A DNA stretch of 57,308 bases from a virus (lineage: Duplodnaviria; Heunggongvirae; Uroviricota; Caudoviricetes), in IMG/VR virus record IMGVR_UViG_2886837984_000001, positions 64,001-121,308 of that record. One strand, written 5' to 3'. Both the position numbers and the translations under genes were made by a program. Under the pieces are notes generated by a model that made no database searches, was not told where the DNA came from, and was given only the letters and a program-made list of their open reading frames with translations. Of the stretch, positions 25,004 through 43,438 are shown piece by piece (position 1 is the stretch's first letter; every line of letters starts with the position of its first letter).

Positions 25004-28000
25004 TTATTGGATCTCTTCCAAGTCTGCGATTCTGGCCTCTAACGTCTCGATGAGCGTTTGTTGCTCTTGTACGGCCTTCCAGAGTACGGATGTCATCGCA
25101 TACGGGTTGACGGCCTTGTTTTCTCCGCCACGCAGTATCTCTGGGACTGCCTCTGCCAGTATCCCGATTTGTCGATTGTCAAAATTAAAATCGTCCACGT
25201 CAGACTGGTAGTAGTATTCGTATATGTTCACGTCCTTAAGGACTGAGATCGCACCGTCCTGCAAGGGTTTGATGTTTGTTTTGAACGTCACGGATGACGT
25301 CAATCTCGTCCCTTGGGCGTAAACCATCCCTGGTACGGCGATATTGTTTACGTTGATGATCGTGTTCGACGGGTTGATCGTGTTCTGATACGAGCCGCCG
25401 ACACCGATCGCATTGAAGTAGACGGTAGTCCCTTCTTCTGCATATTGTGAGTGCGAGTGATATCTCGAAGCATAGTTCGAGGACACCCAAGACTCGGTCG
25501 CATAGTCGTTAGAACCGCCAGACGAGCTGTAACCCTGATCCAACACCCACTGTCTCGTTGCGATCGCATTGCCTCGCAACATCGCTGAAGCCGCGCCGTT
25601 CGTCGGATATAAGTTGATTGCCGGGGCGTAAATCGTCAAAATATCGCACGTCGTGTTGATCTCGAACTCAGACGTATAATTGTTAGACGTTCCAGAGAAC
25701 GGGTTGAGTCTGATGTACCCGGAGCGTGTAGACGAGTTGTACGTGTTGCTGAAAGAGATCCGACCGTCTGCGAGTTTTGTGGTCGAAGATTCCGACCCTG
25801 ATTGATAGTAGGTGTATATCTCACTGTTCGACATCTCTATTTTGTTGTAGGCGGAACCGCTCGTGATCGTCGTACCCGAGATCGTCGTACCCGAGATTGT
25901 CGAGCCCGTGATCGTATTACCGGTAATCGTTCCGCCGGTAATCGTACCTGCCGACAAAGTTCCCCCTTCGATCAATCCCCCCTGGATAAGAGGCGACCAG
26001 ATCCGGTCGCTATCGAGGTACGTCGGTTTCCCGACCATGCTCTCCCATGAGACGTCCGGCATCGGTTGGCTGTTTACCCCTCCCCACGAGATGCTACCGC
26101 TGTTGATGACGATGTCTCGGACATTCAACTTCCCGTTCGAATCTACCCAGAACACGTCTTTGGCTGTGTTTTTGTTCCGAATCTTGATCCCGTCCGTCGC
26201 ATTGAGCGTCACTTTCGTCTTCGAGTTCTCCGACACCAGACCTTCAGCATCATTCAACCGAATCCCGTTCGCTCCGCCCGCAATCGAGATCGATCCGCCG
26301 TCGATATCCATCCCGAACGTACCAAAACTGACGACAGGGATTCCTGCGCTGTTCTTGACGACCGCAGATGCGAGATCTCCGTTGACGACCGTCATCTGTG
26401 TGGCCGTGATCTTCTGCGTGTTCAAGTTTCCGTTCGCATCCGTCCAAAGAAGCTTCTCGAGGTTTCCGCCCTGGTAACGGGAGATGTAGAACCCTTCACC
26501 GTCGATGATACCCACCTGGTTTTTACGGTTGTCCACGACCAAGCCGAAGCGCTCGTCTTCTCCTTCGTCCGTCACAAGGCCAAGTTTGACGACCTCTTCT
26601 CCGAGACGGTTCGAGATACTGGCCTTGTTCCCGAGGATACGGAAGATACCGTCCTCGTCCTCGATCGTCAGGTTAACACCCGCGATAATCTTCCCGAAGA
26701 TACGTTCCCCAACGATACCCGTAGGTGTGATGGCATGGCCCCACGTCACCCCGTCATCGTTCGTCGTCGCCAGGACGCCGTTCTGCACGACGAGATACTT
26801 GCGGTTGTCCTCATAGTCACGGGACGTCAATCCTCGTGCGCTGAACTCGGTGAGTCCTGCGACACCCCCCGACACCTTCTTCTTAACCGCGTCAAAGTTT
26901 TGTTCGATAAGGGCGTTGATCTGCCCGTTGTTCTCTTTCGATAGATCCCATTTAAACCGGTTCTCGTTGACCACCGTCGCCGCAAAACTCGACTGATACA
27001 GCATCTCGAGAAACTTGTTCGTCCCGTCGTTCGAGTCCTTGACGTTCGTGATCGTGACCGTCAGTTCTTTCGTGTCGTAGTTGCGGACGATACCTGTGAT
27101 GCGCGCCGTTGTGATGCCCCTGTTCCACGGTTCCTCGATTCGGATCTCGTCCCACATGCGGAAGTCCTTGTGGCCGTCTGGGATCTCGACCATGCTGAGG
27201 AAGTCGACCAACCCGACGTTCAGGTTGATGTTCGGCTTGATGAGTTCCTTGAGCTCCTTACGCCCCTCCTCGAGCAAGTCCTTCGCTTCGACGATCGAGT
27301 CGTTCGTCCACTCCTTGCGGATGATGAAATGTGACCGCTCCGCGATCTGAGCCGGCGTGAAGTTGTTGCGGATGAGCATCTGTTCTTTCAGGAGTCCGAT
27401 CTGGCCGCCCGAAGCACCCATGACGACGAACCCTAACTCGTAATAATCCGCTCCCGCGATGTCCGAAATGTCCTCTTTTAAGCCCAAAACCACCGATTCG
27501 ATGACATTTTTGGCCTCTAAAATACGGATTTTATCTGCCTCATATTCGGGGTTCGACTGCCCGTTGTTCAAGGCCAGGTGGATATCGACCCGCTCCTGTG
27601 CCTGTGTGAGCTCGATGTCGAGGTCTGCGAGCATGTCGTTCTGTTCGGACACCTGTGCCATCAACCCGTCCAACTGGACGACGAGCGAGTCGAATGTCGG
27701 TGTCAGTTGCGACAGCTTCCGGTTGTACGCGACCATCGCCTGTGCGAGCGAGTCGGACATGAAGTAGCTGCTCTTGACGATATTTCCTTGTTCGTCCTCC
27801 TCATACGGATAGAGGAAGTAGGAGAAGTCCTCGATGTACGGCGACCCCGTCGGAGACACCTCATGGATCGTCAGACCGTCCTTCCCGTAGAGGGCGAGCT
27901 GTGTCACCATGTTGTCGGCGTTCGTGTCCTTCGTGAGCGACTTCATGTAGTTGCGCTCACTGATTTTCAGACCACGGTTACGACCCAACGTCTCAGGGTT

Positions 28001-28609
28001 TCGGAAGTGGATCAGGTACTCGGTGTCGTCGTACTCCAAGACCGCACCGAACTTCTGTGCGACCTGAACGGCCAACTCACCCAACGACCCGTCGAACGTA
28101 AACTCACGTCGCTTCAGGTCGAACTCGGAGTCCACGTCTCCCAAGCGCCAAGGTGTATCCTCGTCCCGGTCGATCGTGGCTCTGACGATCTCTGAGAGCG
28201 TCCACGACGAGTAGTCGAGCCCGTCAGGATGTTCGTTGTCGATGGTCGTGAAGCCCTTGATCGGGATGTCCGATAACGTATAAGGGTTCAACTTGCAGGA
28301 CACGGATACCGTGAGGGCGTCCATATCGAAGTTGAACCCCGTGATCACGTAGTATCGATCCTTGTCCGTCTCTTTGTCGTGCAGCTTGATGACCATACGT
28401 TCCCGGATCATCTCGGCGTGAAGGTTCTTCTTGTTCTCCTCGAGCGTCTGATGCTTCAAGGGCAAAACAAAGGACAACTCGTTGAGCTGCCCCCCGTTGA
28501 ATGATTCGGTCTCTTGCCGAGCTTCCGACAGCCGAGCAATCGTCGTCCGATCGGGTTTTGCGAGATAAAGGATGGGTTTGGTGTTGCGTTGCTTGATGTC
28601 GAAATACAT
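25004..28609 (-). CDS. Tail hub/spike protein with C-terminal intramolecular chaperone (peptidase S74-like)
   Basis: N-terminal prophage-endopeptidase-like tail domain, coiled coil, beta-repeat region, and TSSVTFKTNIKPL...IGILAEAVP...VLWKAVQE. Confidence 0.8.
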   Translation of the reverse strand: MYFDIKQRNTKPILYLAKPDRTTIARLSEARQETESFNGGQLNELSFVLPLKHQTLEENKKNLHAEMIRERMVIKLHDKETDKDRYYVITGFNFDMDALTVSVSCKLNPYTLSDIPIKGFTTIDNEHPDGLDYSSWTLSEIVRATIDRDEDTPWRLGDVDSEFDLKRREFTFDGSLGELAVQVAQKFGAVLEYDDTEYLIHFRNPETLGRNRGLKISERNYMKSLTKDTNADNMVTQLALYGKDGLTIHEVSPTGSPYIEDFSYFLYPYEEDEQGNIVKSSYFMSDSLAQAMVAYNRKLSQLTPTFDSLVVQLDGLMAQVSEQNDMLADLDIELTQAQERVDIHLALNNGQSNPEYEADKIRILEAKNVIESVVLGLKEDISDIAGADYYELGFVVMGASGGQIGLLKEQMLIRNNFTPAQIAERSHFIIRKEWTNDSIVEAKDLLEEGRKELKELIKPNINLNVGLVDFLSMVEIPDGHKDFRMWDEIRIEEPWNRGITTARITGIVRNYDTKELTVTITNVKDSNDGTNKFLEMLYQSSFAATVVNENRFKWDLSKENNGQINALIEQNFDAVKKKVSGGVAGLTEFSARGLTSRDYEDNRKYLVVQNGVLATTNDDGVTWGHAITPTGIVGERIFGKIIAGVNLTIEDEDGIFRILGNKASISNRLGEEVVKLGLVTDEGEDERFGLVVDNRKNQVGIIDGEGFYISRYQGGNLEKLLWTDANGNLNTQKITATQMTVVNGDLASAVVKNSAGIPVVSFGTFGMDIDGGSISIAGGANGIRLNDAEGLVSENSKTKVTLNATDGIKIRNKNTAKDVFWVDSNGKLNVRDIVINSGSISWGGVNSQPMPDVSWESMVGKPTYLDSDRIWSPLIQGGLIEGGTLSAGTITGGTITGNTITGSTISGTTISGTTITSGSAYNKIEMSNSEIYTYYQSGSESSTTKLADGRISFSNTYNSSTRSGYIRLNPFSGTSNNYTSEFEINTTCDILTIYAPAINLYPTNGAASAMLRGNAIATRQWVLDQGYSSSGGSNDYATESWVSSNYASRYHSHSQYAEEGTTVYFNAIGVGGSYQNTINPSNTIINVNNIAVPGMVYAQGTRLTSSVTFKTNIKPLQDGAISVLKDVNIYEYYYQSDVDDFNFDNRQIGILAEAVPEILRGGENKAVNPYAMTSVLWKAVQEQQTLIETLEARIADLEEIQ
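25862..25960 (-). repeat. 15-nt tandem repeats encoding (T/S)I(S/T)Gx pentapeptides
   Basis: GTLSAGTITGGTITGNTITGSTISGTTISGTTITSG. GATCGTCGTACCCGA occurs twice exactly. Confidence 0.8.
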
Positions 28610-28646: not shown

Positions 28647-28672
28647 AAAAAAGACCGTCATCTCGACGGCCT
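28647..28672 (-). terminator. Intrinsic terminator after recombinase gene
   Basis: AGGCCGTC-GAGAT-GACGGTCT + T-run. Confidence 0.8.
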
Positions 28673-28675
28673 CCA

Positions 28676-29674
28676 TCATTGAACTAAAAACTTGCGGTGT
28701 TGCTCCCGTTTTTTCTCCTCGGTTAGTTGACAGTAGATTTGCGTGGTGCTTACGCTAGCGTGTCCGAGTAACGCCTGTACGCCCGTGATATCGGCTCCAG
28801 CATTAAGCATGGTAGTAGCAAACGTATGGCGCAAAGAGTGAGGGCTGACATGCTTTTTGACGCTCGACTGCTTAGCGATGACAGAAATCTCACGCTGAAT
28901 GCCTCGCTTCGACAAACGTCCGTGAGGTTTTCTTTCAGAGACCATCAATGCCTCGTTGTCGTCTGTGCGTGATTTTAGATATTTTTCGAGATGATACATC
29001 GCCTTGTAGCTGAAATAGACCTCGCGTTCCTTGTCGCCTTTCCCGACCACCTTACAGCTCTTGTCCTGGAAGTTGATATCTCGTCTGTTCAATTGCTGAA
29101 TCTCTGACAAGCGACATCCCGTGGCATATAACACCTCGAGAAACACCCGTTGTCGATTCGTCTTGCATCCCTCACGAAGCATTTCCAACTCTTCGATAGA
29201 CAACGCTTTGGGTAGTCGTTTTTCTTTTTTAGGTGACTTTAACTTTTTAGATGGGTCACGCAATATGTATTCTTCTGAAGTCAGCCATCCAAAGAACGAT
29301 TTCAGTACGCTCTGTTTTCTTCCGAGCGAGCTCATTTTCAGATGCGAAAATTTAGAGAGGTGACTTCTGATGTCGGCAGTAGAGATTTCATCCGTTCTCT
29401 TTTTGACATCTTCTGCAAACACCCTCAAGTCTCTCGCATATGTATTCAGCGTCAGAAAACTCAAACCTTCTAGCTTTTTAGCTGATTCAAATAAAAATAT
29501 TTTTTGATTTAAATCAGGATGAACTTCTGTGAGCGATACTGCGGTAACATTATATTTCGACACAATCTTCGACAATTCATTTTTCGTACCGTCGACATCG
29601 ACCGGGGTGGCAGACGTAAGTCTCGTTATGTAGGACGTAAGTTCCGTGACAATTTGTTCGTTTGCTGTTTGCAT
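28676..29674 (-). CDS. Tyrosine recombinase (XerD-like with SAM-like N-domain) next to tailspike genes
   Basis: LYATGCRLSE, GKGDKER, HSLRHTFAT, LGHASVSTTQIY: full R-K-H-R-H-Y catalytic set. Confidence 0.92.
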   Translation of the reverse strand: MQTANEQIVTELTSYITRLTSATPVDVDGTKNELSKIVSKYNVTAVSLTEVHPDLNQKIFLFESAKKLEGLSFLTLNTYARDLRVFAEDVKKRTDEISTADIRSHLSKFSHLKMSSLGRKQSVLKSFFGWLTSEEYILRDPSKKLKSPKKEKRLPKALSIEELEMLREGCKTNRQRVFLEVLYATGCRLSEIQQLNRRDINFQDKSCKVVGKGDKEREVYFSYKAMYHLEKYLKSRTDDNEALMVSERKPHGRLSKRGIQREISVIAKQSSVKKHVSPHSLRHTFATTMLNAGADITGVQALLGHASVSTTQIYCQLTEEKKREQHRKFLVQ

Positions 29675-29697
29675 ATGATCTTTCCCTTCTTGATTGT

Positions 29698-29743
29698 TGT
29701 GAGTACAGACTCATCATACATCATTTGAAGAGAAAAGCCAATT
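29698..29743 (-). promoter_or_regulatory. Putative promoter and palindromic operator of the recombinase gene
   Basis: Minus strand TTGGCT-17-TATGAT, immediately followed by TGAGT-CTGT-ACTCA. Confidence 0.5.
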
Positions 29744-29810
29744 GAAAAAATATAAATTGCAAAACTATTATTAACGTCATGTTGATAAGGTTTTTGTGGT
29801 TTGAAATATA

Positions 29811-29848
29811 AAAAAGAGCGATTTTTTAATGGTTATGTCGCTCTTTTT
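29811..29848. terminator. Bidirectional terminator after tailspike 2
   Basis: AAAAAGAGCGA...TCGCTCTTTTT. Confidence 0.75.
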
Positions 29849-29859
29849 TATATGTATTT

Positions 29860-29887
29860 TAGTGAAGCATTTGAACCAATTACGACG
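29860..29887 (-). repeat. Conserved 28-bp site immediately after the tailspike 2 stop
   Basis: TAGTGAAGCATTTGAACCAATTACGACG, 24/28 identical to 31871-31898. Confidence 0.75.
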
Positions 29888-31732
29888 TTATACAACAGTC
29901 CCTTGTAAGATGTTTTGGCTTTGGGTAATCGTGATGCGTTGTGTGTCTCGGTTGACGATACCTTGCTGACCGGCACGCAAACTGTACAGCCTGTTTTGGT
30001 GTATGCTGTAGTTCCCATACGTCTGATTCGTTCCTTTTAGCTCGATCAATGGGTTGACTCCTGCGAGACTCGCGGAGTTTGCTAGCCCGAACTCAGATGA
30101 CATGATATCTGCGGTGACGACATCGTCAAAAATTGCCATGTACTGCAACGAGTTTCGTAAAAACCGAACGGTAGACGCGCGCTCGATCAATGTCGTCGGA
30201 ACGTTCGTGTCTTTAATCGTCACGCTTGCGGTGTCGAGCGTTCGGATGCGCGCGTTTAACGAGAGGTTCCTCGCTTCTACACGGCCGATCACGACGACGT
30301 CCGTCGAAGGTACTACGATCAATCCGCCCAAAGCATTGTTCGCGTTCAAGAACTCAACGTTATCAATTCCGACGTAAGCACCTTTTGCCGCGTAGATTGA
30401 CGTCCCTGGGTTGCTTGCCGTTCCGACGTCGAAGATACAGTCTTTCAATATCAGCCGGTCAGACACACGCATACTTGCGCTTGTCGTTTCCTGATAAACG
30501 CCGAAGATGTAATTTTTGAAGTTACAGCTTTTAAACTTGATTTCTCCGTTTTTGACAAGAGTCTGACCTACAGCGATACGTACCGCCTTATCTTTTGTTT
30601 TGTTGAAATTACAGCGCTCGAACTCGATGTTTTTCGACCCTTCCTCAATCGTCACTGATGACAACTCTCCGCCATTAAACTCGCAGTCGATAAATTTAAC
30701 GCCATCCGTTCCGGTGTCTATCTTGACGTGCTCCGTTAATTTTAAAGCGCCGTAATTCCCATCGTCGAGCAACTCGAAATTACATTTGTTAAAAGAGACG
30801 CCCTTTACAGGGTTATTGATGTCGCCGTTCGCGATAAAGCACATACCGCCCGTTTTCAATTTACAGTCTGTAAAATTAAAGTTTTTAGGCTGTTGACCAG
30901 ACGCTGAGGAGTATACTCCGATCAAAGCATGGTTCATGAGATTTGACTTACTAAATTCCAAGCTGCATTTTTCGAAATAGACGTTCTGCGTCCCTGAAAA
31001 TTTGAACAACATTTGTTCTTTTCCTAAAGCGTCAACGTTTCTTAAAATGACTTTTTTCAGTTCGCCAAAGCTAAATAGTTGCCCGTCCGTATAAAAGAGC
31101 GTGGAACCATTAAACTCATAAGGTTGTTTAATACCCACGATGTTCGTCGCGTCGATACGTGCGTTGTTGTATACAATTTCAAATTCTTCGATTCCTTGGA
31201 TAGTCGGCATCTTGTCGAAAACATTCAGCACACCGTCTGTGATAAGTAACTTTTTGGTAGATGTCTTTGATGCAGCCAAAGCGCCACGTAGTAATTCCGT
31301 GTCGTCTCTTTTGACAAGGGCGTTCGTGACTGTGCGCTGCAAGGCGTTAGAGATTGTGATCGTCTGCCCGTTGACCGCTGAAACCGTTGACCGCAGGTAG
31401 TTGTACTCAAGCGGTTCCATAGCACTTTTGGCGCTTCCGCCGTTTGCAATAGCGATCAAGTCGCCCGCTTTTAAATTGTGGTTTGCGCCCATTGTGATCG
31501 TCGTACCCGACCCGCTAGCTAAAATATCAACAGGTTCGTTAGGTGTGACCTTTGTATATAGCGTCATTTCCGCCAACTGAGACGCAACCTCTGACTGTTT
31601 TGCGAGCTCAATATTTCCTGATGAGCTTCCAATATATGTGCGACTCTCATCCATTGTAAACCCAAATTCGCCTACGTCTAGATTCGGTATGTCGGACTGA
31701 TTCCCTCGTTTCACCTGAATCTTTCTTGCCAT
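29888..31732 (-). CDS. Tailspike / receptor-binding protein 2 (Mtd_N-like anchor + beta-helix depolymerase-like domain)
   Basis: MARKIQVKRG...LDVGEFGF..D..R.YIG anchor, SQLAE junction, then Asn/Cys-ladder beta-helix repeats (F.DC.F, F.NC.F). Confidence 0.8.
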   Translation of the reverse strand: MARKIQVKRGNQSDIPNLDVGEFGFTMDESRTYIGSSSGNIELAKQSEVASQLAEMTLYTKVTPNEPVDILASGSGTTITMGANHNLKAGDLIAIANGGSAKSAMEPLEYNYLRSTVSAVNGQTITISNALQRTVTNALVKRDDTELLRGALAASKTSTKKLLITDGVLNVFDKMPTIQGIEEFEIVYNNARIDATNIVGIKQPYEFNGSTLFYTDGQLFSFGELKKVILRNVDALGKEQMLFKFSGTQNVYFEKCSLEFSKSNLMNHALIGVYSSASGQQPKNFNFTDCKLKTGGMCFIANGDINNPVKGVSFNKCNFELLDDGNYGALKLTEHVKIDTGTDGVKFIDCEFNGGELSSVTIEEGSKNIEFERCNFNKTKDKAVRIAVGQTLVKNGEIKFKSCNFKNYIFGVYQETTSASMRVSDRLILKDCIFDVGTASNPGTSIYAAKGAYVGIDNVEFLNANNALGGLIVVPSTDVVVIGRVEARNLSLNARIRTLDTASVTIKDTNVPTTLIERASTVRFLRNSLQYMAIFDDVVTADIMSSEFGLANSASLAGVNPLIELKGTNQTYGNYSIHQNRLYSLRAGQQGIVNRDTQRITITQSQNILQGTVV

Positions 31733-31796
31733 AAGATAAAACCTCCGTTTTATTTCTTTATTTAATTTACTTTCATCGAGACCGACGTTTTTATTT

Positions 31797-31838
31797 TAAA
31801 AATCCTCTGTTACTGATCACAGTATTGACAGAGGATTT
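31797..31838 (-). terminator. Hairpin/terminator after tailspike 1
   Basis: AAATCCTCTGT...ACAGAGGATTT, with a T-run on the minus strand. Confidence 0.7.
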
Positions 31839-31870
31839 GCTCATAAAAGGCCGTTTTGGTGAATTTTAAC

Positions 31871-31898
31871 TAGTGAAGCATATGAACCAACTGTGACG
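31871..31898 (-). repeat. Conserved 28-bp site after the tailspike 1 stop
   Basis: TAGTGAAGCATATGAACCAACTGTGACG. Confidence 0.75.
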
Positions 31899-31902
31899 AA
31901 GA

Positions 31903-33813
31903 TTAGGCGCGGCTACCGATTGCGCCTTTCTGAATGTTCCAGTAAATAACGACACCCTCAGTAACCGCATTTGCGAAGTTTACGGTAAATTGGGTCGCGG
32001 TTGGGTTGGACACCCACATCCGATTACCCGAACCGATATCCGTCCCTGCGTTTATATAAATATCTTGCAAACGCGGAATTTCATCCAATCCATGTGTCAT
32101 CGTGATTGCCGTCAACCCTGCCCAAGTAGTTCTGGAGCCGCTGTTTTCGGTCAAAAATCCGTTATTGTTTTTTAAAACGAGCGAAGCGATAGGGTTACTA
32201 GAACCCCATTGGATTTTTGTGGTTGAAATATCTTTCATATCATTCCCGACGATTGACAAATAATCAATCCGACCAGTAAACCTAAGCGCTTTTTTCAGCG
32301 AATCAAATACATTCCCCTTAATCCTTAGTCTGCCGAATCCGGTTGTCGACTGAACATAAACCCCTATAGCGTCAGTGGATGACGTCGCAAAATTACGGAA
32401 GGTGTTGTCTGAAATTTCGATAGATCCGGGGATGTCGATAAGATTAATGCCGTAAACTGTTCCTCCATCAAAAGACTCGATACCATCAAACAAGTTCCCG
32501 TTTACTTGCAAATGTTCCGCTTGTGAGGAGTATATGCCATAGAAGTTCCCGTTCTTTTTGATATTTTGAAAATAATTGTTTGATATCTTCCCTCGCGACC
32601 CCCCGAGTAATACACGAATTCCGTATTGAAACACACCTTCGATAACGTTACCTTCGGTTAGTATGTTATCGTTTGCCATGCTGATCGCCCATGCAACCCG
32701 ATCTGGTTTAGTCGCTCGCAACAGATTCCCTTTAACGATTGCAGTATGACCCGCAACGCTAGCGGAAATCCCATCTTCGACCATCTGCCGATTCGCACCC
32801 TTAACGTTGATAAAACCCTGTTTAGATCCGGCGTCAATCAATGTGTTGTTTGTGATTGTCGAATACGCACACTTTGTATAAATCCCCTCGCTATCTCCTC
32901 CTTCATTCGAAACATCTTTGATAAAGTTGTTGTCGATCTTTGCATAAACTCCGTAACAAATAAAACCCTGAACATCAGACGTGCCTGAACGAAAAATGGT
33001 GTCGAGAATGTTGTTTGTGATGAAATATTTGCTTCTAAGCGGGTAGCCTACGTTGTTACCTAATTGTACCGCGCGGCCGTTCTGGATGTTTTTAATCACG
33101 TTTTTGTCAATAAATACGTGTTCCAACTTTGGCGGGGCTAAGAGGATTCCGCGAGTACATGATTCAATGATATTGTTAAGGATGAAGACATTACTTATCC
33201 CAATATTGTTAATCTCTTCTGTGCTTTTCCCTGCCACATCAATCGCGGCGCTATCCCAAATTATAAGCGCGTTGCAATTTTTCACATGAACTCTTTCGAT
33301 TCGTAGATAGTCGAGGGAAACGTCTGACCCACCAAAGTTTACGACCGTTCCGGCACCTTCGATTGTTACATCTGTCAAAATAAAACTGTTGTTAGGATTG
33401 AAAAGACTTTGCCCAGACTGTCCTTTAATAACTGTTCGTCCAACCCCCGACCCCTTGATGTAGAGTTTTTTATCAAACACAGATTCGCCCAAACCCGAAA
33501 GCTTGATTTCTCCTGCCGGGAGTAGGAGTGTTGACTTATCCGGAAGTTCTTGAATTGCGTTCATGAAGCTAATGGATGAGTCAACCCCGTCCGATGTTAC
33601 GCCAAAAAAAGAAGCGTTGTATCCTCGTTCTGTTAAATACGTCTCAGTTTCCGCCAACTGCGTCATAACTTCTTCTTTTTTAGCCAACTCCACGTTGCCC
33701 GAAGAGCTTCCTACGTAGGTGCGTTTTTGGTCTGTCGTGAACCCCATTTCCCCGACATCGAGAGCCGGTAGGTTTGCCTGAATACCGCGTTTCAATTGAA
33801 TTTTTTGTGCCAT
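31903..33813 (-). CDS. Tailspike / receptor-binding protein 1 (Mtd_N-like anchor + pectate-lyase-like beta-helix)
   Basis: MAQKIQLKRG...LDVGEMGF anchor, TQLAE junction, NASFFGVTSDGVDSS (pectate_lyase_3-like start), and many (I/V)xxNxF repeats. Confidence 0.82.
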   Translation of the reverse strand: MAQKIQLKRGIQANLPALDVGEMGFTTDQKRTYVGSSSGNVELAKKEEVMTQLAETETYLTERGYNASFFGVTSDGVDSSISFMNAIQELPDKSTLLLPAGEIKLSGLGESVFDKKLYIKGSGVGRTVIKGQSGQSLFNPNNSFILTDVTIEGAGTVVNFGGSDVSLDYLRIERVHVKNCNALIIWDSAAIDVAGKSTEEINNIGISNVFILNNIIESCTRGILLAPPKLEHVFIDKNVIKNIQNGRAVQLGNNVGYPLRSKYFITNNILDTIFRSGTSDVQGFICYGVYAKIDNNFIKDVSNEGGDSEGIYTKCAYSTITNNTLIDAGSKQGFINVKGANRQMVEDGISASVAGHTAIVKGNLLRATKPDRVAWAISMANDNILTEGNVIEGVFQYGIRVLLGGSRGKISNNYFQNIKKNGNFYGIYSSQAEHLQVNGNLFDGIESFDGGTVYGINLIDIPGSIEISDNTFRNFATSSTDAIGVYVQSTTGFGRLRIKGNVFDSLKKALRFTGRIDYLSIVGNDMKDISTTKIQWGSSNPIASLVLKNNNGFLTENSGSRTTWAGLTAITMTHGLDEIPRLQDIYINAGTDIGSGNRMWVSNPTATQFTVNFANAVTEGVVIYWNIQKGAIGSRA

Positions 33814-35183
33814 TAGAATGTACCCCCATTAATATATGATCCCGTGACGACCTCTCCGAACATGCCCCCGTTGATGTCGCTAGTGTCCACGAGCTCCGAT
33901 ACGGCTTCCATAAGAATGACAGATAAATCTATTCTCTCGAGCCAAGCAGATCCGTCGTATCGATAGACCTGACCTGTGTTTCGAACCATGACCGCCCATC
34001 CTTTTTGTGGCGATGGATACGTCGTCGCAATATTCGAGAACGTGTTGACCGGGTTTTGCCATGTGAACTTAGTAGATTCTGCCGCATCCATCGCAGCCTG
34101 TGTCGCTGACGTAGATGAGTTGGCCGCCGTGTTCGCTGCGAGCGTGGCCGCCTCTGCCGCCTCTGTCTGTTCGATCAGCTCCAATGCTTGTGCCTCTGTC
34201 GTCTTGAAGTAAACAAGCTCGACCACATCCCCTGCGTTCACGCCGTTGATAAGTGTTACCTTGGTCGGAGACGTCTCGTTAAAATCGACGCCCGAAGACT
34301 GTTTGACCCCCGAGACATACACATCGATCCGATCTTGGTTCGTAAAGTATGCCTTTGATGTCGTAAAGACCGTCTGACCTTGTGTTCCCACGAGGCGATC
34401 CTTACGGCGAGCCATGTTCTGCGGATGGGTCGGTGAGAAGCTATGACTGATCCATTTGTCGAAATGATACCGGTAGACGTTCCCGTCATCTTGTGTCTGC
34501 ACCTGATCCCCGTGTTCGGGATTCGGATATGTGGTCGAGATCCCCGCGAACTCTGAGACCGGGTTCAACCAGTTGACGACGGCCGATAGCGCCGCCTCGT
34601 CTGCGCGCTGTGCTTTCTCTAGTGCCAGGTCTCGTGCGTTATTGGCAGACAAGACCGCTGCTTCCGCGCTTCCTTTTGCCTCTAACCCCATAGACTTGGC
34701 GTAATCGCCTTGATTCAACGCAAATTCCCCCTGTGTTTGGGCGAACGTTGCCTGAGTACTGGCCGCTGCGGTTGCTTCGTTCGTCATCTCGATATCTTCG
34801 TCAAGTCTTGCTCCAAGCGCTGCGATATGACTCAAGGTGACGCCGACCGACTCGTTGTTTTCAGCATCCCCGTAATAGATACGTTCTGCCGGGATCTTGA
34901 CGACCCCTCGTCCTTTGTAGCGCACCGTGACGGTGTCTACGAGTGACGGTTCGAAGTATAAGACTCCGTTCGTGTAATCCACGTAGAAGCGAGTCCCTTC
35001 CGGTGTGTTCGTAGCTTTTTCCGTATACCCGTCCACGATCACACCGAACTCTTTGACAGGAACCTCTTCGAGAACCGCTTTTCCGCCTACCAACTTGATC
35101 GTTTCAATCTTGTCCACGTATGGATCTTCTAGAGAACCCTCCCGTGTCTGATAAAGCAATGGGTTCGTTAATTGCGAAGCCAT
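33813..35183 (-). CDS. Baseplate/tail structural protein (upper-baseplate-like)
   Basis: Position after Dit. Ala-rich coiled coils and a duplicated TTYPxP...G.VYRY motif. TAATG coupling to tailspike 1. Confidence 0.65.
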   Translation of the reverse strand: MASQLTNPLLYQTREGSLEDPYVDKIETIKLVGGKAVLEEVPVKEFGVIVDGYTEKATNTPEGTRFYVDYTNGVLYFEPSLVDTVTVRYKGRGVVKIPAERIYYGDAENNESVGVTLSHIAALGARLDEDIEMTNEATAAASTQATFAQTQGEFALNQGDYAKSMGLEAKGSAEAAVLSANNARDLALEKAQRADEAALSAVVNWLNPVSEFAGISTTYPNPEHGDQVQTQDDGNVYRYHFDKWISHSFSPTHPQNMARRKDRLVGTQGQTVFTTSKAYFTNQDRIDVYVSGVKQSSGVDFNETSPTKVTLINGVNAGDVVELVYFKTTEAQALELIEQTEAAEAATLAANTAANSSTSATQAAMDAAESTKFTWQNPVNTFSNIATTYPSPQKGWAVMVRNTGQVYRYDGSAWLERIDLSVILMEAVSELVDTSDINGGMFGEVVTGSYINGGTF

Positions 35184-35213: not shown

Positions 35214-35235
35214 AAAAAGACGGCTCTAGGCCGCC
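35214..35235 (-). terminator. Intrinsic terminator after the Dit gene
   Basis: GGCGGC-CTAGA-GCCGTC + T5. Confidence 0.7.
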
Positions 35236-35264
35236 CTTTCTTGTTAATTATGTTCTATATGAAT

Positions 35265-35346
35265 GTTCTAACATTAGATTATTAATCTTCTACAATTAGA
35301 TGTTTTAGTTTCTAATGTTAGAACCTTTATATACCAACGTTAGAAC
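35265..35346. repeat. Palindrome array 3 (4 copies)
   Basis: Copies start at 35265, 35287, 35309 and 35331: exact 22-bp phase. Confidence 0.9.
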
Positions 35347-35374
35347 ATTATGCCCCAACGGAAGATACCCGTGG

Positions 35375-36127
35375 TCAACGGTACTTCTCTCGATACTTGA
35401 TGACGAGATGGACGTCCCCGCTCAACTCCAACAGGTTGTTCCCTGTCGCGAGCCACATATAGTTCTCGTTCCACGAGTCATAGCGATAGACGTTCGGGAG
35501 CGACGACTCGACCGATTCCCGGTTGGTGTCGATGACCATCTTCTCGCCCTCGGCCATCTCATGAACGACCATCTCCTCGTTCGTCCGCAGGTTCTTCATG
35601 CGGAACGGGTTGTCTGCGGTGATGTTCGTCCTGGCGTACAATTCATAGATCGGCTTGACGAGCGTGATCCCCTTGTTGACGAACTGATAGTCACCAGAAT
35701 CCTCGTACTCGATGGCAACGACAGGCGTATGCCAATAGGACGAATTCGCCCGGACGTTGACCGTGAAGTAGCCACCGATCCCGTCGTGCGAGAGCCTTGG
35801 CGACGACTCGACCATCGCCCAGATGATACGGTCGGGCATCTCGTCGAAATAGAACGGTTTGTAGTAATCCTTGTCGAGCCACGACAACACCTTGTCGAGC
35901 TTGAAACGGTCGAAACCGTCCTCGAAATACAGCGTCATCTCGAACGAGATTGTGTCCCGAGTGACGTGCTTCAGATATGTCTCGTCCGAACCCCGAACCT
36001 GTTCCGTCTCGAGCGTCCGTGACGACATCATATCGTCCTCGAACAGCCCCCCGTTCACCGAAACCTGTACCAATCCGAACTCATATGACGGTCTGCCGTC
36101 ATAGTTGAAACCCATAAAATGCTTCAT
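35375..36127 (-). CDS. Distal tail protein (Dit, Sipho_tail-like)
   Basis: Directly after the TMP. F...G..S.EFGL, ISFEMTL.F, WL....YKP..FDE.PD, WLATGNN.LE. Confidence 0.82.
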   Translation of the reverse strand: MKHFMGFNYDGRPSYEFGLVQVSVNGGLFEDDMMSSRTLETEQVRGSDETYLKHVTRDTISFEMTLYFEDGFDRFKLDKVLSWLDKDYYKPFYFDEMPDRIIWAMVESSPRLSHDGIGGYFTVNVRANSSYWHTPVVAIEYEDSGDYQFVNKGITLVKPIYELYARTNITADNPFRMKNLRTNEEMVVHEMAEGEKMVIDTNRESVESSLPNVYRYDSWNENYMWLATGNNLLELSGDVHLVIKYREKYR

Positions 36128-36140
36128 TTATCCACCACCT

Positions 36141-36165
36141 AAAAAGGAGAGCCGAAGCCCTCCTT
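36141..36165 (-). terminator. Intrinsic terminator after the TMP
   Basis: AAGGAGGGC-TTCG-GCTCTCCTT + T-run. The Dit RBS follows immediately. Confidence 0.8.
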
Positions 36166-39100
36166 AGCGTTTTCCGTACTTGTTGTTAATGAGGTTCATC
36201 GTGCGCTTCATGAAGTCGTCCGATGCCTCTTTGCCGTCCTTGATCTCGTTGTTGCTGAAATCGTTGTTGATGTTCTCGATATGAACCGTCGGAGCGCTAG
36301 ACCCCTTGACGCTCTGCATCTTGTTGATGAGCGAACGGAGAGGTGAGATGAGGCGGTCGGTGAATTCTACCGTCTTCAACATGTTCTTCGTCTGCTCTTG
36401 GTTGAGCACGAGCTCCTTCTTGTGGAGGATCGCCGGCATACCGCCGTTGAACTCGCCCGTGTACATACCGCCCGAAGCGAACGACCCGACGAAGTTCTTG
36501 TTCACATACCCCGTCTTGTCTCCGTATTGCACCTCATACATGAGCCCACGGTCACGGAGGATTTTGATCGACGTCCCTTTCGGGATCGATGTCATGATTC
36601 CTTCTACCGAGATATACGGGTTCGCATAAAGTGCGGCGTTCGAGCTCGTCTTCGCGTTCTTGTCGATCGTCGTGCTTCCTTTTAATGATTCGTACAGGGC
36701 GTCGAACTCGCGCTTGGCTCGGATGATCTCCGACTGCATGTCCGATAGGGACTTGACGTACTCGTCGAGCGCCTTGTTTCGATCTTCGTTCGTCGATGCC
36801 GACTCGTAAGCCGAATAATACTTCTGAAGAGCCGACTGTTGTTTCGATTTAATCCGGTTCGTACTATCCGTCACCATGTCGTCATAGACACGTTTGCCGG
36901 AATCGTAAGAGATCGAGTCGACACGGGCGTTATGCGCTTTTGCCGTCACGCTGTACTGCTTCAACAACTCGTTGATCGGTGCGCTCGCCTGATTGAGCTC
37001 CGACGCTCTCGTATGGCTCATCGCCACACCCCATGAGTTCGATTGTTTCGATGTGGACAGTTCTGAATTACTTACCCAACCCGTCTGACCGTTAGAAAGC
37101 TTAACTTTAGAATGTGTACCCGTCTGCTCAAGAACCTCGTACCCTTTTCCGTCGACCAACGACCCGATCACTTTAGAACTGCCGTTCGCATCTGCTCTCA
37201 CCGATACCGGTTTGGCAGAACCCGTTTGAGCCGCATACATCGATAACCCTGTCACCGGTGCTTCTTGCGATAAGTCGTCTCCCGAGCTCGGATTCTTGTA
37301 ATCCGTATCGAAATCTTTCCCTGTCAATTGCGAAAGAAGGTCTAACGCCTCTTTCAGCTTGTCGATGTAGTTCGTCTGCAAGACCTGTCCGAGAGAGTCG
37401 AACGAACTTTGAGACGTATGCACGATATCGCCCAACGCTTTTGAAATTGTGTCTGCGAGCGCGATGGTCTCGTACTCTGTGTCGTCGTAGAGATACGACA
37501 AATCTTTGAGCACGTCCTGATACGTCTTACCGAGGTTGTCGTACATCGTTCTGAATCCTTTCGATGTATCGATCAACATCTCGTTCGCCATCCGTTTCAC
37601 TTCGTCGAAGTTCCCTTTCATGGCTTGTTCGCGGATTTCGTTCCACTTCCGCTCGTCGTTCAACACGTCGTCGTAATATTTATTCAGGTCTTCGAGCATC
37701 TTGTCGAACAATGCCGATTCCGCTTCTTCACGACGATCCATGTCTTCCTCGAACTTCTCGTAGTTCTCGTCCTCTACCTTCTGTTTGTCATCGAGGTTCT
37801 TCTCGTACAATTCACGTTCTTTATCGATGGCTTCCTTCTGTTTCTCGAAGTCTCGTTGATACAGGTATTCCTCGCGCTCCTCTTGGAGTGTCTGGAGCTC
37901 TTTCATCAACTCTTTGCGTTTCGCCTTTGCCTCGAACGAGTCGTCCATCGAGATGCGGTTGATCGAACTACGGATCTCTTGCTCACGCTCCGAATACTCG
38001 TCCATCTGTTTCTGATGGCTTCGCTCGTCGTTCTGTTCATCTAAACGTTTGATACGCTCGTCGAAGAAGTCGTTCATCTTCTCGCGCTCTTTGTCTAGCT
38101 CCTTCATCGTCTTCTCGTGGGCATTCTGTCGGACGTTGCGTTCACGCTGAATGGCCTTCTCGCGCTCCTGCTGAATCTTCTCGATCGACTTGATCTCCGC
38201 GTCGCGCTGCGCCTCCAAAGCTTCGCGGATTGTTTCAATCATGCTGTCAGAGAAACCTCCGAGCATGTCTTTTTGAGCGGAGTTAAGGCTGTTCACCGAA
38301 TCCTCGAGCGACAACAGCTCCTCGCTGTACCGCTTCACGAATTCAAGTTGTTGTTCGTACTCTTTTGAGGATGCCCCGTATTTCTTGCGAACCTCTGACA
38401 AGATGGCTCTCTCTGCCTCTAGTTGCCGCTTCTTGATGTCCCAAAGCTTGCGCTCCGTCTTTTCTTGCTCGACGGTCGTGACATATTTCTTGACGAGGTC
38501 GGTGTTCGACTCACCGTCCATGATCGCCAATTGACGTTGGAAGAAATCTTGATTTTTTTTAAGGTCACGCATTTGATTTTCGTACAGTTTATTACGAATC
38601 TCTGTACGCTCGCGCGCGATTTCCATCGCCGCCTGACGCTCTTCCTGAATCTCTTGTTTGAGAACCCATCTGAGGTCGTCGAGTCGTGCCGTGAACTCGG
38701 CTTGACGAGATAGCGATAACTGCTTGTAATAAGCGCCTTTTCGATCTTTTTCCATTTGAATGATCTCGAGCTCGACGGCACGACGTTGGAGTCTCGCGTT
38801 GTTTTGCAGTTTCTCGTAGAGAGCCAACGATTGACGGGTGTACTCGACCGTCGTCTCCATGTTCGCGCGGACAAGCTCCTCGTCTTTCCCGTATCTGTCG
38901 TACATCGACTTATACGTGTTCGCCCGAGCGTTGAGGTAGTCGAGGATAATCTGTTGTCTGCTGTCTTCGATCTTGTTGAGCTCTTCAATCTGACGGATTT
39001 CTTCGGCTTTCTGTTCAGCTAGATTCTGTGCTTTTTCTGCCTGCGCTTTTGTTTGGTCGGCAATCTTCTTCTCTTGGTCTACCTGAGTAGAAGAGACGGA

Positions 39101-43159: not shown

Positions 43160-43438
43160 CATGTCTGTTACTTTCTTTTGTCCTAATATTCTAATGTTAG
43201 AATATATAAGTTCTAATGTTAGAACAAAATACTGACCAACATATACCTGAAACCCGTTGGCGGAGAGGCGCTTCAACCTCTCTCTTGCAGTCTCCTGCAA
43301 AGTTCAGACTATCGCTTCACATACACATGGGTATGTGTCTTTTCGTTTAGTCGTTCACGCTGCCATTACGCTTGCGCCCTGTTGTCCCATATGAGGGAGT
43401 TCCAAGTCGATTAGAAAAGATTTTACATCGGCAACTCT
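43160..43438 (-). mobile_element. Group I intron TMP-I2 (279 nt, no ORF)
   Basis: Minus strand ATCGGT|agagttGCCGAT (6-bp P1 with U-G). TCTTTTC/GAAAAGA P3. GTGAACGACTA / GATAGTC P7. Ends ...acatG|AAC. Splicing restores ANIG|NSLKTIFSR. Confidence 0.9.
43188..43225. repeat. Palindrome array 4 (2 copies) inside intron TMP-I2
   Basis: ATTCTAATGTTAGAAT (43188) and GTTCTAATGTTAGAAC (43210), 22-bp phase. Confidence 0.9.

Follow-up and report, generated by a model that had tools for sequence, protein, structure and literature searches.

Two tailspike genes that share a short N-terminal anchor, have unrelated domains behind it and are followed by a tyrosine recombinase gene raise the question of whether the receptor-binding parts of a phage tail can be exchanged by a dedicated site-specific enzyme. 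Precise swaps of receptor-binding modules in phages are usually credited to homologous recombination at conserved linkers. For the block at 28650-33813 of the window (the whole stretch of DNA analysed, 57,308 nt), we lean towards a reading as a tandem pair of receptor-binding cassettes with a dedicated Xer-like tyrosine recombinase, here called REC, acting on them. Judging from the sites and their counterparts in other genomes, the cassettes are probably framed by the recombinase's sites and integron-like in logic, with exchange taking place between like sites.

Tailspikes and recombinase of the block

The window is part of a 121-kb SPbeta-like phage with terminal repeats, a large Bacillota phage for which database comparison found no close relatives. 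The genes all lie on the minus strand in the order Dit-like gene, TS1, TS2, REC and Tal, and GC content is 40-46% over 29-34 kb against 50-55% in the flanks, in agreement with a preliminary description of this DNA in which the block had looked AT-richer than its surroundings. The genes and their adjacent signals are:

33813..35183, minus strand: 456-aa baseplate protein (ORF), N-terminal part Dit-like, directly upstream of TS1
31903..33813, minus strand: TS1, predicted tailspike of 636 aa, Mtd_N-type anchor (residues 1 to ~53), then parallel beta-helix
29888..31732, minus strand: TS2, predicted tailspike of 614 aa, Mtd_N-like anchor (residues 1 to ~53), then right-handed beta-helix
29713..29741, minus strand: promoter-like site upstream of REC, TTGGCT-17-TATGAT, consensus match only
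28676..29674, minus strand: REC, predicted Xer-type armless tyrosine recombinase of 332 aa
28650..28674, minus strand: terminator-like hairpin 3' of REC
25004..28609, minus strand: Tal, YomG-like tail-associated lysin/fibre of 1201 aa, downstream border of the block

The 456-aa protein, whose stop codon overlaps the TS1 start, matches phrog_11315 (9e-58) and, by BLASTP, the Dit-position protein of another locus (L070), with a weak DUF2793 match near its C-terminus, while Tal carries YOMG_N, Prophage_tail and Peptidase_S74 domains and matches phrog_6211 at 5e-154. TS1 and TS2 are predicted to be phage tailspikes, each with an N-terminal anchor and a beta-helix, the latter a depolymerase-like domain by likeness. 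For TS1, this assignment draws on PF18454 (Mtd_N, 33.4 bits, over the cut-off), repeated N-x-I/L-x-N motifs, a match to a Vibrio phage parallel beta-helix protein and distant homologues that have PF12708. For TS2, the Pfam matches to Beta_helix and Mtd_N are both weak, and its Atlas model (pTM 0.80) aligns with beta-helix proteins across residues 51-597 (TM 0.69), the closest feature clusters having PF12708 and Mtd_N.

The preliminary description had noted a shared anchor of ~55 aa followed by unrelated beta-helices, and the comparison bears this out, with 39/59 N-terminal residues identical and no similarity beyond. Its proposal of a single fixed anchor onto which domains are swapped does not hold, as each tailspike has its own. 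The anchors are 67% identical at the nucleotide level and end, as had been described, in an exact 13-bp repeat, CAGTTGGCGGAAA, of which the minus strand has exactly two copies (31567-31579 and 33648-33660; 0.06 expected by chance). With 67% identity, it is not unusual for an anchor to contain a 13-nt identical run at some position (P = 0.27), the probability for a single position fixed beforehand being P = 0.006.

By sequence, REC is a Xer-type (simple, armless) tyrosine recombinase. It matches PF00589 (Phage_integrase) at 6e-40, has a SAM-like N-terminal domain (PF02899 and PF13495) and exceeds the NF040815 cut-off (237 bits versus 220), and the closest solved structures are XerD (1a0p) and XerA (4a8e/5hxy). 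The catalytic residues R188, K212, H279, R282, H305 and Y314 are all present and are invariant in five homologues. The enzyme had thus rightly been called intact, whereas the promoter attributed to it amounts to a consensus match, such matches being no more frequent in the block region than in shuffles. REC stays below the integron-integrase cut-off (TIGR02249, 124 bits versus 265, in two stretches) and scores 77 bits against a cut-off of 435 for NF011946. A role as lysogeny integrase was rejected, because in two proviruses the REC homologue lies inside the tail module and other recombinases occupy the provirus ends (a serine recombinase in G003, a tyrosine integrase in G004). A second integrase is likewise present in the lysogeny region of the isolated phage TPELB_ph1.

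Sites framing the tailspikes

Each tailspike gene is framed by an in-gene site (class I) at the anchor/beta-helix junction and a post-stop site (class II) behind its stop codon, written here as left arm, centre and right arm:

33635..33668, minus strand: S1, class I, TS1 anchor/beta-helix junction, GACGCAGT-TGGCGGAA-ACTGAGAC, encodes TQLAETE, contains the 13-mer
31868..31901, minus strand: S2, class II, GTCACAGT-TGGTTCAT-ATGCTTCA, starts 1 nt past the TS1 stop codon
31797..31836 (approximate limits), minus strand: terminator-like hairpin and T-run 3' of S2, read from the sequence
31554..31587, minus strand: S3, class I, TS2 anchor/beta-helix junction, GTCTCAGT-TGGCGGAA-ATGACGCT, encodes SQLAEMT, contains the 13-mer
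29857..29890, minus strand: S4, class II, GTCGTAAT-TGGTTCAA-ATGCTTCA, begins on the TS2 stop codon
29806..29853, minus strand: terminator hairpin 3' of S4, 16-bp perfect inverted repeat with flanking T-runs

All four sites have the same orientation, with REC 3' of the last one (S4 lies 216 nt upstream of the REC start codon), and no significant inverted partner of any of them was found within 23-36.5 kb, in keeping with the earlier view that this is not an inversion shufflon. The central 8 bp are identical in S1 and S3 (TGGCGGAA), differ by one base between S2 and S4, and differ between the two classes. Within S1 and S3 the 13-mer covers the complete 8-bp centre, extending 4 nt into the left arm and 1 nt into the right, and identity over this portion is what strand exchange needs. 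Arm symmetry is 6/8 in S1, while S2 to S4 have one good arm each and the right arms of S2 and S4 show poor dyad symmetry.

The second conserved site that had been described after each stop codon is a 28-nt repeat at 29860-29887 (in S4) and 31871-31898 (in S2, beginning 4 nt past the TS1 stop codon), with 24/28 positions identical and these two copies only in the 121-kb genome when up to 5 mismatches are allowed. The copies are islands of 86% identity amid unrelated sequence on either side, which includes the hairpins, themselves not homologous to each other. The alignment of the post-stop site with the in-gene junction was also reproduced: the TS2 junction matches the post-TS1 site at 15/20 positions, and the only other such match in the genome is the TS1 junction, a match of this type being expected by chance about once per genome.

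Two matrices were built with the window excluded, the first from six foreign sites and the second, refined iteratively, from ~30 recombinase-proximal sites of other loci, and the genome was scanned at 242,616 positions. With the six-site matrix, S4, S2 and S3 ranked 1st, 4th and ~8th genome-wide, and with the refined matrix S1, S3 and S4 ranked 1st, 6th and 12th, S2 falling outside the top 20. S1 scored 16.7 bits with the refined matrix, a value reached in 13% of shuffled genomes, and the next best position in the genome 12.3; S4 scored 8.5 bits, under the mean shuffled maximum of 14.6. By score alone, the sites of this phage are weak, and their significance lies in where the matches fall.

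REC homologues and their putative cognate sites

Homologues of REC at 46-68% identity were identified in four IMG/VR loci and ~48 genome loci of Bacillota phages and prophages, where they lie behind tail-fibre genes, either in the Dit-Tal interval or in the one separating the last fibre gene from the lysis genes. The expectation that relatives would also have post-stop sites was borne out in ~30 loci, in which a conserved site on the REC strand lies 145-695 nt upstream of the REC gene, usually right next to the preceding ORF's stop codon (at many loci with an offset from -13 to +2 nt). The family consensus is an 8-8-8 dyad, TGCGCAGT-AGGACGAT-ACTGCGCA, in which two 8-bp arms in inverted orientation flank an 8-bp centre, as is usual for tyrosine-recombinase crossover sites. 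For example, in the two isolated phages TPELB_ph1 and phiCp-D, the top matrix match in 15 kb overlaps the fibre stop codon (TPELB_ph1) or lies 4 nt past it (phiCp-D), with a REC-like gene next, and the TPELB_ph1 site is a perfect 8-8-8 palindrome, TGCACAAT-TTGAATCT-ATTGTGCA. S4 agrees with these REC-proximal sites in position and strand. From their sequences, the in-gene junctions and post-stop repeats form one site family tied to the recombinase family of REC, and the layout of anchor, site, receptor-binding part, site and recombinase recurs in many unrelated phages.

REC genes and sites also occur together on chromosomes. Ten Bacillaceae genomes, representing several genera, are homologous in DNA (82-95%) only over a 1.2-kb unit made up of REC with a site on either side, and the chromosomal loci have up to seven direct sites with cargo genes between them. 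L032, L039 and L059 have multi-site arrays. Between related REC modules of different phages, homology ends at the REC stop codon and 50-370 nt upstream, and REC, with or without an HTH partner, therefore moves as a unit. The operators of the neighbouring HTH are other palindromes, placed between the HTH gene and REC.

In-gene sites and natural breakpoints

Across the phage-type loci, 28 additional matches of at least 15 bits lay upstream on the REC strand, against none upstream on the opposite strand and 0 and 1 downstream, and in at least 20 other loci the upstream fibre ORF contains a second site on the same strand, 370-1900 nt from the ORF end. Fibre homology between loci, in both protein and DNA, starts or stops inside the 34-mer site (L033/L050, L045/L076, L045/L047, L053/L064 and L038/L071). 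The in-gene sites are, to judge from their codons, conserved at the DNA level: in a set gathered by DNA similarity and the iterative matrix, and so with some ascertainment bias left, one third codon position is G in 22/22 sites although the residue varies (L, K, S or Q), and the A, T and S codons at two further places are nearly always NCG. Partner sites within a locus showed no co-variation, being no more alike than non-partners (p = 0.14).

Mosaic fibres could also arise by ordinary homologous recombination, with crossovers concentrated in a conserved peptide or linker of the fibre (His-box-like or PF03406-type) and with REC and the class II site forming a separate module, inactive inside the tailspike genes, that serves, for example, Cre/loxP-like cyclisation, dimer resolution of this plasmid-type prophage or cargo capture. 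We regard this account as unlikely; it is a realistic alternative for the in-gene breakpoints, since in at least one fibre the motif lies inside a match to PF03406, a known protein repeat. It is further favoured by the frequent separation of motif and enzyme, as REC is encoded in only 2/30 IMG/VR records with the in-gene motif and five near-complete phages have the motif without REC. The earlier idea that breakpoints fall at the junction stands for the fibres of other loci, but a recombinase does not always accompany the framing. Also in its favour are the unremarkable probability of a 13-nt run within the anchors and the lack of co-variation between partners of the two classes, and a separate module would fit the large Bacillus plasmid-prophage phages, which are reported to have several Xer-like recombinases of unknown role, one of them in the structural module (PMC9703825), as well as G000 with its three to four. 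However, homologous recombination leaves unexplained why a non-coding class II matrix finds in-gene junctions with a 28:0:0:1 bias and places one as the top match of this 121-kb genome, why third-position and NCG nucleotides are conserved under varying residues, and why the fibre cassette of phages without REC still ends, on its 3' side, in a non-coding class II site. A resolution module also fits poorly, as a direct duplicate of its site around TS2 would delete TS2.

A proposed mechanism of cassette exchange

The sites, their family membership, the recurring architecture and the natural breakpoints at the site were observed directly, and the mechanism proposed here extends from them to the enzyme: REC is predicted to bind and recombine S1-S4, pairing sites that have the same central 8 bp, where strand exchange would occur. 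Like-site pairs would be S1 with S3, S2 with S4, or either with a same-class site carried by a second phage genome. In a single genome, recombination of S1 with S3 would join anchor 1 in frame to beta-helix 2, and that of S2 with S4 would delete TS2 entirely, each event freeing a circle able to re-insert. Between two co-resident phage genomes, class I x class I together with class II x class II would swap the receptor-binding part alone, a natural recombinase-mediated cassette exchange. The preliminary description had placed each domain between direct attL/attR-like sites; the framing by direct sites is supported by the site family and its recurring layout, whereas excision of each domain by attL x attR fits less well than exchange between like sites, because the class centres differ and partners do not co-vary.

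An improbable alternative to like-site exchange is that the repeats are relics of a tandem duplication of an ancestral tailspike and its 3' flank, with the beta-helices replaced later and REC a selfish mobile cassette with no tailspike role. The mobility of REC modules as units and the AT-richness of the block would suit such a history, but a duplication would decay evenly rather than leave islands of 86% identity in unrelated sequence, these islands match foreign REC-proximal sites, and the same order of anchor, site, cassette, site and REC recurs in many unrelated phages. That the dyads act in RNA (processing, stability or termination hairpins) or as regulator operators is very improbable: an RNA copy of an 8-8-8 site would form a hairpin with an 8-bp stem and an 8-nt loop, and class II sites lie in 3' untranslated regions beside terminators, but DNA homology between genomes begins or ends at the sites, the gene they accompany encodes a recombinase rather than a nuclease or regulator, S2 and S4 have little dyad symmetry, and the operators of the neighbouring HTH are different palindromes.

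Comparison with known systems

The closest phage counterpart is the Rin shufflon of Bifidobacterium prophages, in which an armless XerD-like recombinase ends the receptor-binding-protein locus, downstream of TMP and Dit, and several promoterless C-terminal segments in both orientations are flipped by recombination between 11-bp rix sites in inverted orientation (Mavrich et al. 2018, PMC6109161). Both loci end in a phage-encoded armless Xer-like recombinase, both join a constant N-terminal part to variable C-terminal parts at short repeats, and host-range variation is proposed for both. In contrast to Rin, the sites here are all direct (28:0 strand bias) with no inverted cassettes and fall into two classes, in frame and post-stop, so the expected products are deletion, insertion and exchange rather than flipping. 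Lacking inverted crossover sites, the locus is not a shufflon or tail-fibre invertase (Rin, Rci, Gin/Cin/Min).

The likeness to integrons, as had been suggested, lies in the logic of the array: a tyrosine recombinase stands beside units of variable cargo that each end in a site right after the stop codon, recombinase-less arrays are comparable to CALINs, and chromosomal relatives of the REC locus have up to seven sites. Integron attC sites are imperfect palindromes of 60-130 nt recombined as folded single strands, and attI lies beside a divergent intI. Here, the sites span ~24-34 nt, and REC, Xer-like and below the IntI model cut-off, is downstream of the cassettes and co-oriented with them, so this is not an integron proper. 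Moreover, the first site is in frame within a structural gene, so a protein domain rather than a whole gene would be exchanged. To our knowledge, no integrons have been reported in Bacillota.

REC resembles the Xer/dif, pdif and archaeal XerA systems in its Xer-type sequence and in modules bounded by short dyad core sites. However, it is element-borne rather than host-borne, and the 8-8-8 sites are unlike the dif sequence of B. subtilis. The pdif modules carry resistance genes on plasmids with alternating site orientation. Cre/loxP of phage P1, in which the single site of each genome is used for cyclisation and dimer resolution, shares the single armless recombinase and a dyad site located a few hundred bp upstream of the recombinase gene, and engineered cassette exchange, with a segment flanked by two heterospecific site types, has exactly the layout found here. 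T-even tail-fibre genes recombine homologously at conserved motifs (His-box), and Klebsiella and Acinetobacter phages swap anchor and depolymerase modules. These systems likewise show mosaic breakpoints at a short motif on the anchor/receptor-binding boundary, with the anchor conserved and the enzymatic part variable. In contrast to the present locus, where a recombinase gene, a related non-coding site and DNA-level constraint accompany the motif, they work without a dedicated recombinase, and no non-coding copy of the motif follows the stop codon.

No published description was found in the literature of this recombinase-framed exchange of host-range modules, or of cassette exchange in nature that uses two classes of site in a structural gene of a phage, and such recombinase-driven exchange would apparently be undescribed. 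More tentatively, one REC-like clade with its 8-8-8 sites may constitute a widespread undescribed cassette system of Bacillota, which would exchange host-range modules between phages, serve phages without REC in trans and assemble, on Bacillaceae chromosomes, integron-like arrays whose cassettes include defence genes and other cargo. If true, Bacillota phages would have a rapid and precise site-specific means of host-range exchange and Bacillota an integron-like capture system, while one small recombinase and two heterospecific 24-bp sites would offer a natural toolkit for phage retargeting. It would also account for metagenomic contigs often breaking just past the in-gene fibre motif. The reading lends itself to direct testing, as the same layout is present in two isolated phages and several cultured lysogens.

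Genome setting of the tailspike block

The source record of the window is 121,308 bp long, with 127-bp direct terminal repeats, and megablast and tblastn searches against isolated phages recovered no near relatives of the phage. Similarly, only distant matches (≤28% identity) came from IMG/VR scans with Tal and a 456-aa protein, and from protein searches that used the anchor or the full sequence of the first tailspike (TS1). The minus-strand order of the late region places the two tailspikes (TS1 and TS2) and the adjacent recombinase (REC) between the baseplate proteins Dit and Tal.

Gene order of the block, all on the minus strand
36164-43300, minus strand, tape measure protein
35375-36127, minus strand, Dit-like protein
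33813-35183, minus strand, 456-aa protein with a Dit-like N-terminus
31903-33813, minus strand, TS1
29888-31732, minus strand, TS2
28676-29674, minus strand, REC, tyrosine recombinase
25004-28609, minus strand, YomG-like Tal
after Tal in the late region, minus strand, lysis genes

GC content is 40-46% over 29-34 kb versus 50-55% in both flanks. Overlapping inverted repeats of 37 to 39 nt (AATGTTCTAACATTAGA..., 35256-35349) lie in the AT-rich stretch that separates the Dit-like gene from the gene for the 456-aa protein, adjoined by a terminator-like hairpin (35214-35240).

Tailspikes and their framing repeats

The preliminary description held that the tailspikes share an anchor followed by unrelated domains, with an exact 13-mer at the junction and a second conserved site after each stop codon, and these observations were reproduced: TS1 and TS2 have 39 of their 59 N-terminal residues in common and nothing beyond, the 13-mer (31567-31579 and 33648-33660, encoding QLAE) occurs exactly twice, and the post-stop 28-mers are identical at 24 of 28 positions and are the sole copies in the genome. 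TS2 has a beta-helix fold from residue 51 onwards. TS1 matches Mtd_N above the cut-off at its anchor and has distant relatives that are pectate-lyase-like. Each 28-mer is followed by a terminator hairpin, and the two hairpins differ. Two of these similarities are weak when taken alone, as a 13-nt identical run anywhere in a 67%-identical anchor has a probability of 0.27, and chance alone predicts about one 15/20 match per genome to the in-gene junction, the level of similarity seen at the post-stop site. Exact 18- to 20-mers of the post-stop sites had 11 matches in IMG/VR and two in metagenomes, all attributable to chance and in unrelated contexts. Both 28-mers read LV(H/Q)MLH-stop in the frame set by their in-gene partner, an observation not relied on here. 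The 28-mers show no sign of a conserved ORF, since each of their four differences changes the amino acid whichever frame is read.

The recombinase and its family

REC retains all catalytic residues, in agreement with its earlier description as intact, and is of the Xer type (NF040815 above the cut-off; XerD and XerA as closest structures), with integron-integrase models scoring far below their cut-offs. The best match in isolated phages is only 37% identical. Homologues with 46-68% identity number four in IMG/VR and approximately 48 in genome sequences, from Bacillaceae, Paenibacillaceae and Clostridia, and in a tree the window REC falls within a 20-member clade (100/99 support) that includes a chromosomal subfamily. 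Cultured carriers include Paenibacillus sp. DMB5, which has two REC prophages (L037 and L039), and Halobacillus sp. A5 (L031). The homologous gene lies between Dit and Tal in siphovirus-type loci, and between the last fibre gene and the holin/endolysin genes in myovirus-type loci. Upstream neighbours are highly varied and include fibres, glycosyltransferases, Ltp, and caspase-like, Schlafen-like and macro-domain proteins. When related modules of different phages are compared, the homologous DNA is confined to REC and the 50-370 nt before it, and stops at the REC stop codon. REC is regarded as an accessory recombinase because two proviruses (G003 and G004) carry other integrases at their ends.

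In approximately 12 loci, a divergent gene for a 72-aa XRE-type HTH protein lies directly upstream of REC, with operator palindromes between both genes, and together they probably form a repressor-controlled recombinase module. This HTH gene is absent from the window. In L036, L037, L038, L039, L069, L070, L072, L073 and L075, the HTH protein is 71 to 78 aa long and encoded 100-370 nt upstream of REC, and a palindrome specific to the subfamily, such as TATAAGTTATATAACTTATA or TACACGAAAAACGTGTA, occurs twice between the two genes.

A probable cognate site near recombinase homologues

In phage-type loci, the strand that encodes REC carries a motif related to the core site of the chromosomal subfamily (described below), located 145-695 nt upstream of the gene and usually touching the stop codon of the preceding ORF. 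Its consensus, TGCGCAGT-AGGACGAT-ACTGCGCA, consists of an 8-bp centre between inverted 8-bp arms. Two isolated phages, Terrisporobacter phage TPELB_ph1 (PP197244) and Clostridium phage phiCp-D, each have a REC-like 'integrase' gene that follows the gene for the last tail protein and precedes that for the holin, and the best matrix match in 15 kb lies at the tail-protein stop codon, overlapping it in TPELB_ph1, where the site is a perfect 8-8-8 palindrome, and 4 nt after it in phiCp-D. Two loci (L005:9800-9990 and L008:9770-9950) have a conserved, apparently structured element of ~70 nt between the post-stop site and REC (GCAGG..CTGATCA..CCGAGA..CCTGC, then a T-run).

Members of the chromosomal subfamily, from ten genomes of several genera, are homologous (82-95%) only over a 1.2-kb unit extending from a 22-nt core ~170 nt upstream of REC to ~40 nt past its stop codon. 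Cargo genes are separated by related sites, present in two to seven copies in direct orientation, with one copy directly after the REC stop codon; this third site, downstream of REC, was found only in the chromosomal subfamily and not in phage-type loci or the window. The arrays, of up to seven same-strand sites (L059 from Alkalihalophilus lindianensis, L042, L043, L048, L049, L056 and L068), consist of two alternating site types separating unrelated cargo genes, and the only DNA common across genera is the 1.2-kb unit of site, REC and site. These look like an integron-like cassette array in Bacillaceae.

Window sites as members of the family

The genome (242,616 positions) was scanned with matrices built from foreign sites, initially six and then those of approximately 30 loci with the window excluded. 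The six-site matrix ranked the post-TS2 site first, the post-TS1 site fourth and the TS2 in-gene junction approximately eighth, while the top match of the refined matrix was the TS1 in-gene junction (16.7 bits; next 12.3), with the TS2 junction at rank six and the post-TS2 site at rank twelve. A score of 16.7 bits was reached in 13% of shuffled genomes and is not decisive by itself; the weight lies in the top match falling on one of four places named beforehand, for which the chance is roughly 2 in 10,000. The four sites, in-gene (class I) or post-stop (class II), are listed below as read in an 8-8-8 arrangement.

Window sites as left arm, centre and right arm
33635-33668, S1, class I, TS1 anchor/beta-helix junction, GACGCAGT-TGGCGGAA-ACTGAGAC
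31554-31587, S3, class I, TS2 anchor/beta-helix junction, GTCTCAGT-TGGCGGAA-ATGACGCT
31868-31901, S2, class II, after the TS1 stop codon, GTCACAGT-TGGTTCAT-ATGCTTCA
29857-29890, S4, class II, starting on the TS2 stop codon, GTCGTAAT-TGGTTCAA-ATGCTTCA

The 13-mer covers the centre of S1 and S3 in full, reaching 4 nt into the left arm and 1 nt into the right. The classes differ in their centres, both family-wide (TGGCGGAT in class I versus AGGACGAT in class II) and in the window (TGGCGGAA versus TGGTTCAW). Reverse-complementing the left arm of S3, GTCTCAGT, gives exactly the right arm of S1, ACTGAGAC, and ATGACGC from the left side of S1 recurs as a direct copy on the right side of S3; these correspondences may be the trace of a past exchange.

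A second site inside fibre genes

Additional sites in phage-type loci were counted at a threshold of ≥15 bits, leaving out the 800 nt upstream of REC that had contributed to the matrix. Upstream of REC, 28 were found on its strand and none on the other, with counts of 0 and 1 downstream. At least 20 of the 28 lie within the fibre ORF upstream, at distances of 370-1900 nt from its end, and a second, in-fibre site is a trait of the family. The typical in-gene site, TGCGCATT-TGGCGGAT-AATGCG.., encodes A-H/Q-L-A-D/E, which the TQLAE and SQLAE of the window fit. The recurring layout thus runs from the anchor through the class I site to the receptor-binding part, which small ORFs may accompany, and on past the stop codon and the class II site to REC, with the HTH gene before REC in some loci. 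Further class II sites follow small ORFs in five loci (L032, L039, L040, L074 and L075).

When fibres were compared across loci, the common part lay either before or after the class I site, and alignments ended within 5-11 residues of it. At the DNA level, homology begins at the first base of the 34-mer site in L045/L076 and 6 nt into it in L033/L050, whereas in L045/L047 it stops 28 nt into the site, in either sequence. A search for inverted repeats indicative of a shufflon found none.

Possible peptide conservation, and framing without the recombinase

A conserved peptide combined with ordinary homologous exchange could also account for the in-gene motif, and is a serious rival because in some fibres a Pfam match to the tail-fibre repeat PF03406 spans the motif. 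However, one third codon position is G in all 22 in-gene sites while the residue varies between L, K, S and Q, and at two other codons the residue is A, T or S (at one also V or E) while the codon is nearly always NCG, a pattern subject to some ascertainment bias as the sites were collected by DNA similarity. Moreover, sites of class II do not encode protein. The case for cassettes is weakened by the lack of significant co-variation between class I and class II partners of a locus (p = 0.14), and by framing in phages that lack REC.

Of the 30 IMG/VR records with the motif TGCGCATTTGGCNGAWWAT, only two encode REC, and five that lack it are near-complete phages. In 11 of the approximately 15 motif records with enough downstream sequence, a high-scoring class II site lies 0.3-2.5 kb downstream, showing that cassette framing exists without REC in cis; in the two checked (L090 and L110), holin and endolysin genes follow this site. 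Such framing is consistent with recombinase supply in trans, as in integrase-less cassette arrays, and also consistent with a REC-independent role. Approximately half of the motif contigs (L087-L116) end 0.1-1.5 kb downstream of the in-gene site, and these ends could be assembly breaks caused by heterogeneity of the cassette within the population. One phage without REC has two class I to class II units (L093:300-3650), in a 152-aa fibre-like ORF and a 430-aa ORF, with holin-like and lysin-like genes between them.

Proposed mechanism

Tyrosine recombinases such as Cre, Flp and lambda Int generally require matching centres. As the class I and class II centres differ, recombination of like with like is favoured. 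In cis, S1 x S3 would join anchor 1 in frame to beta-helix 2, and S2 x S4 would lead to the loss of TS2. With two genomes as partners, class I x class I together with class II x class II would exchange the receptor-binding cassette alone. The tandem arrangement in the window looks like the product of a single circle insertion.

The interpretation of the block as recombinase-framed receptor-binding cassettes is partly supported, as judged from sequence comparison: the framing by sites and their link to the recombinase family are strongly supported, recombination by REC is a prediction, and the pairing rules probably differ from the proposed pairing of in-gene with post-stop sites to excise each domain. 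Excision by S1 x S2 or S3 x S4 may nevertheless occur and would leave two truncated anchors ending ...QLV(H/Q)MLH-stop, where the stop codon is the one that closes each 28-mer.

Relation to known systems

The Rin shufflon is closest in biology, with an armless XerD-like recombinase at the end of a receptor-binding locus, as for REC, but works via inversion (PMC6109161). Integrons are closest in logic, although the REC enzyme and sites fall outside the integron type. The enzyme type and site build recur in Xer/dif modules and Cre/loxP. The Wbeta-clade recombinase was discarded as a parallel, being a lysogeny-module enzyme (PMC8878798). In-frame, direct-repeat, recombinase-framed receptor-binding cassettes were not described in the literature searched (subscription journals lay outside its scope). 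The system would be a form of receptor-binding diversification and cassette capture driven by a site-specific recombinase, and there is a substantial chance that it represents a broader, undescribed cassette system of Bacillota.

One of the two nearest items in the literature concerns Tyroviruses, which have a structural-module recombinase without an explained role (PMC9703825). The phage genome encodes three to four tyrosine recombinases and no serine recombinases, and the one upstream of the tape measure gene (46925-47905, minus strand), unrelated to REC, is reminiscent of the Tyrovirus structural-module recombinase gp50. Within the Tal gene, four tandem repeats at 15-nt spacing (25859-25930) presumably encode a repeated peptide in its fibre part.
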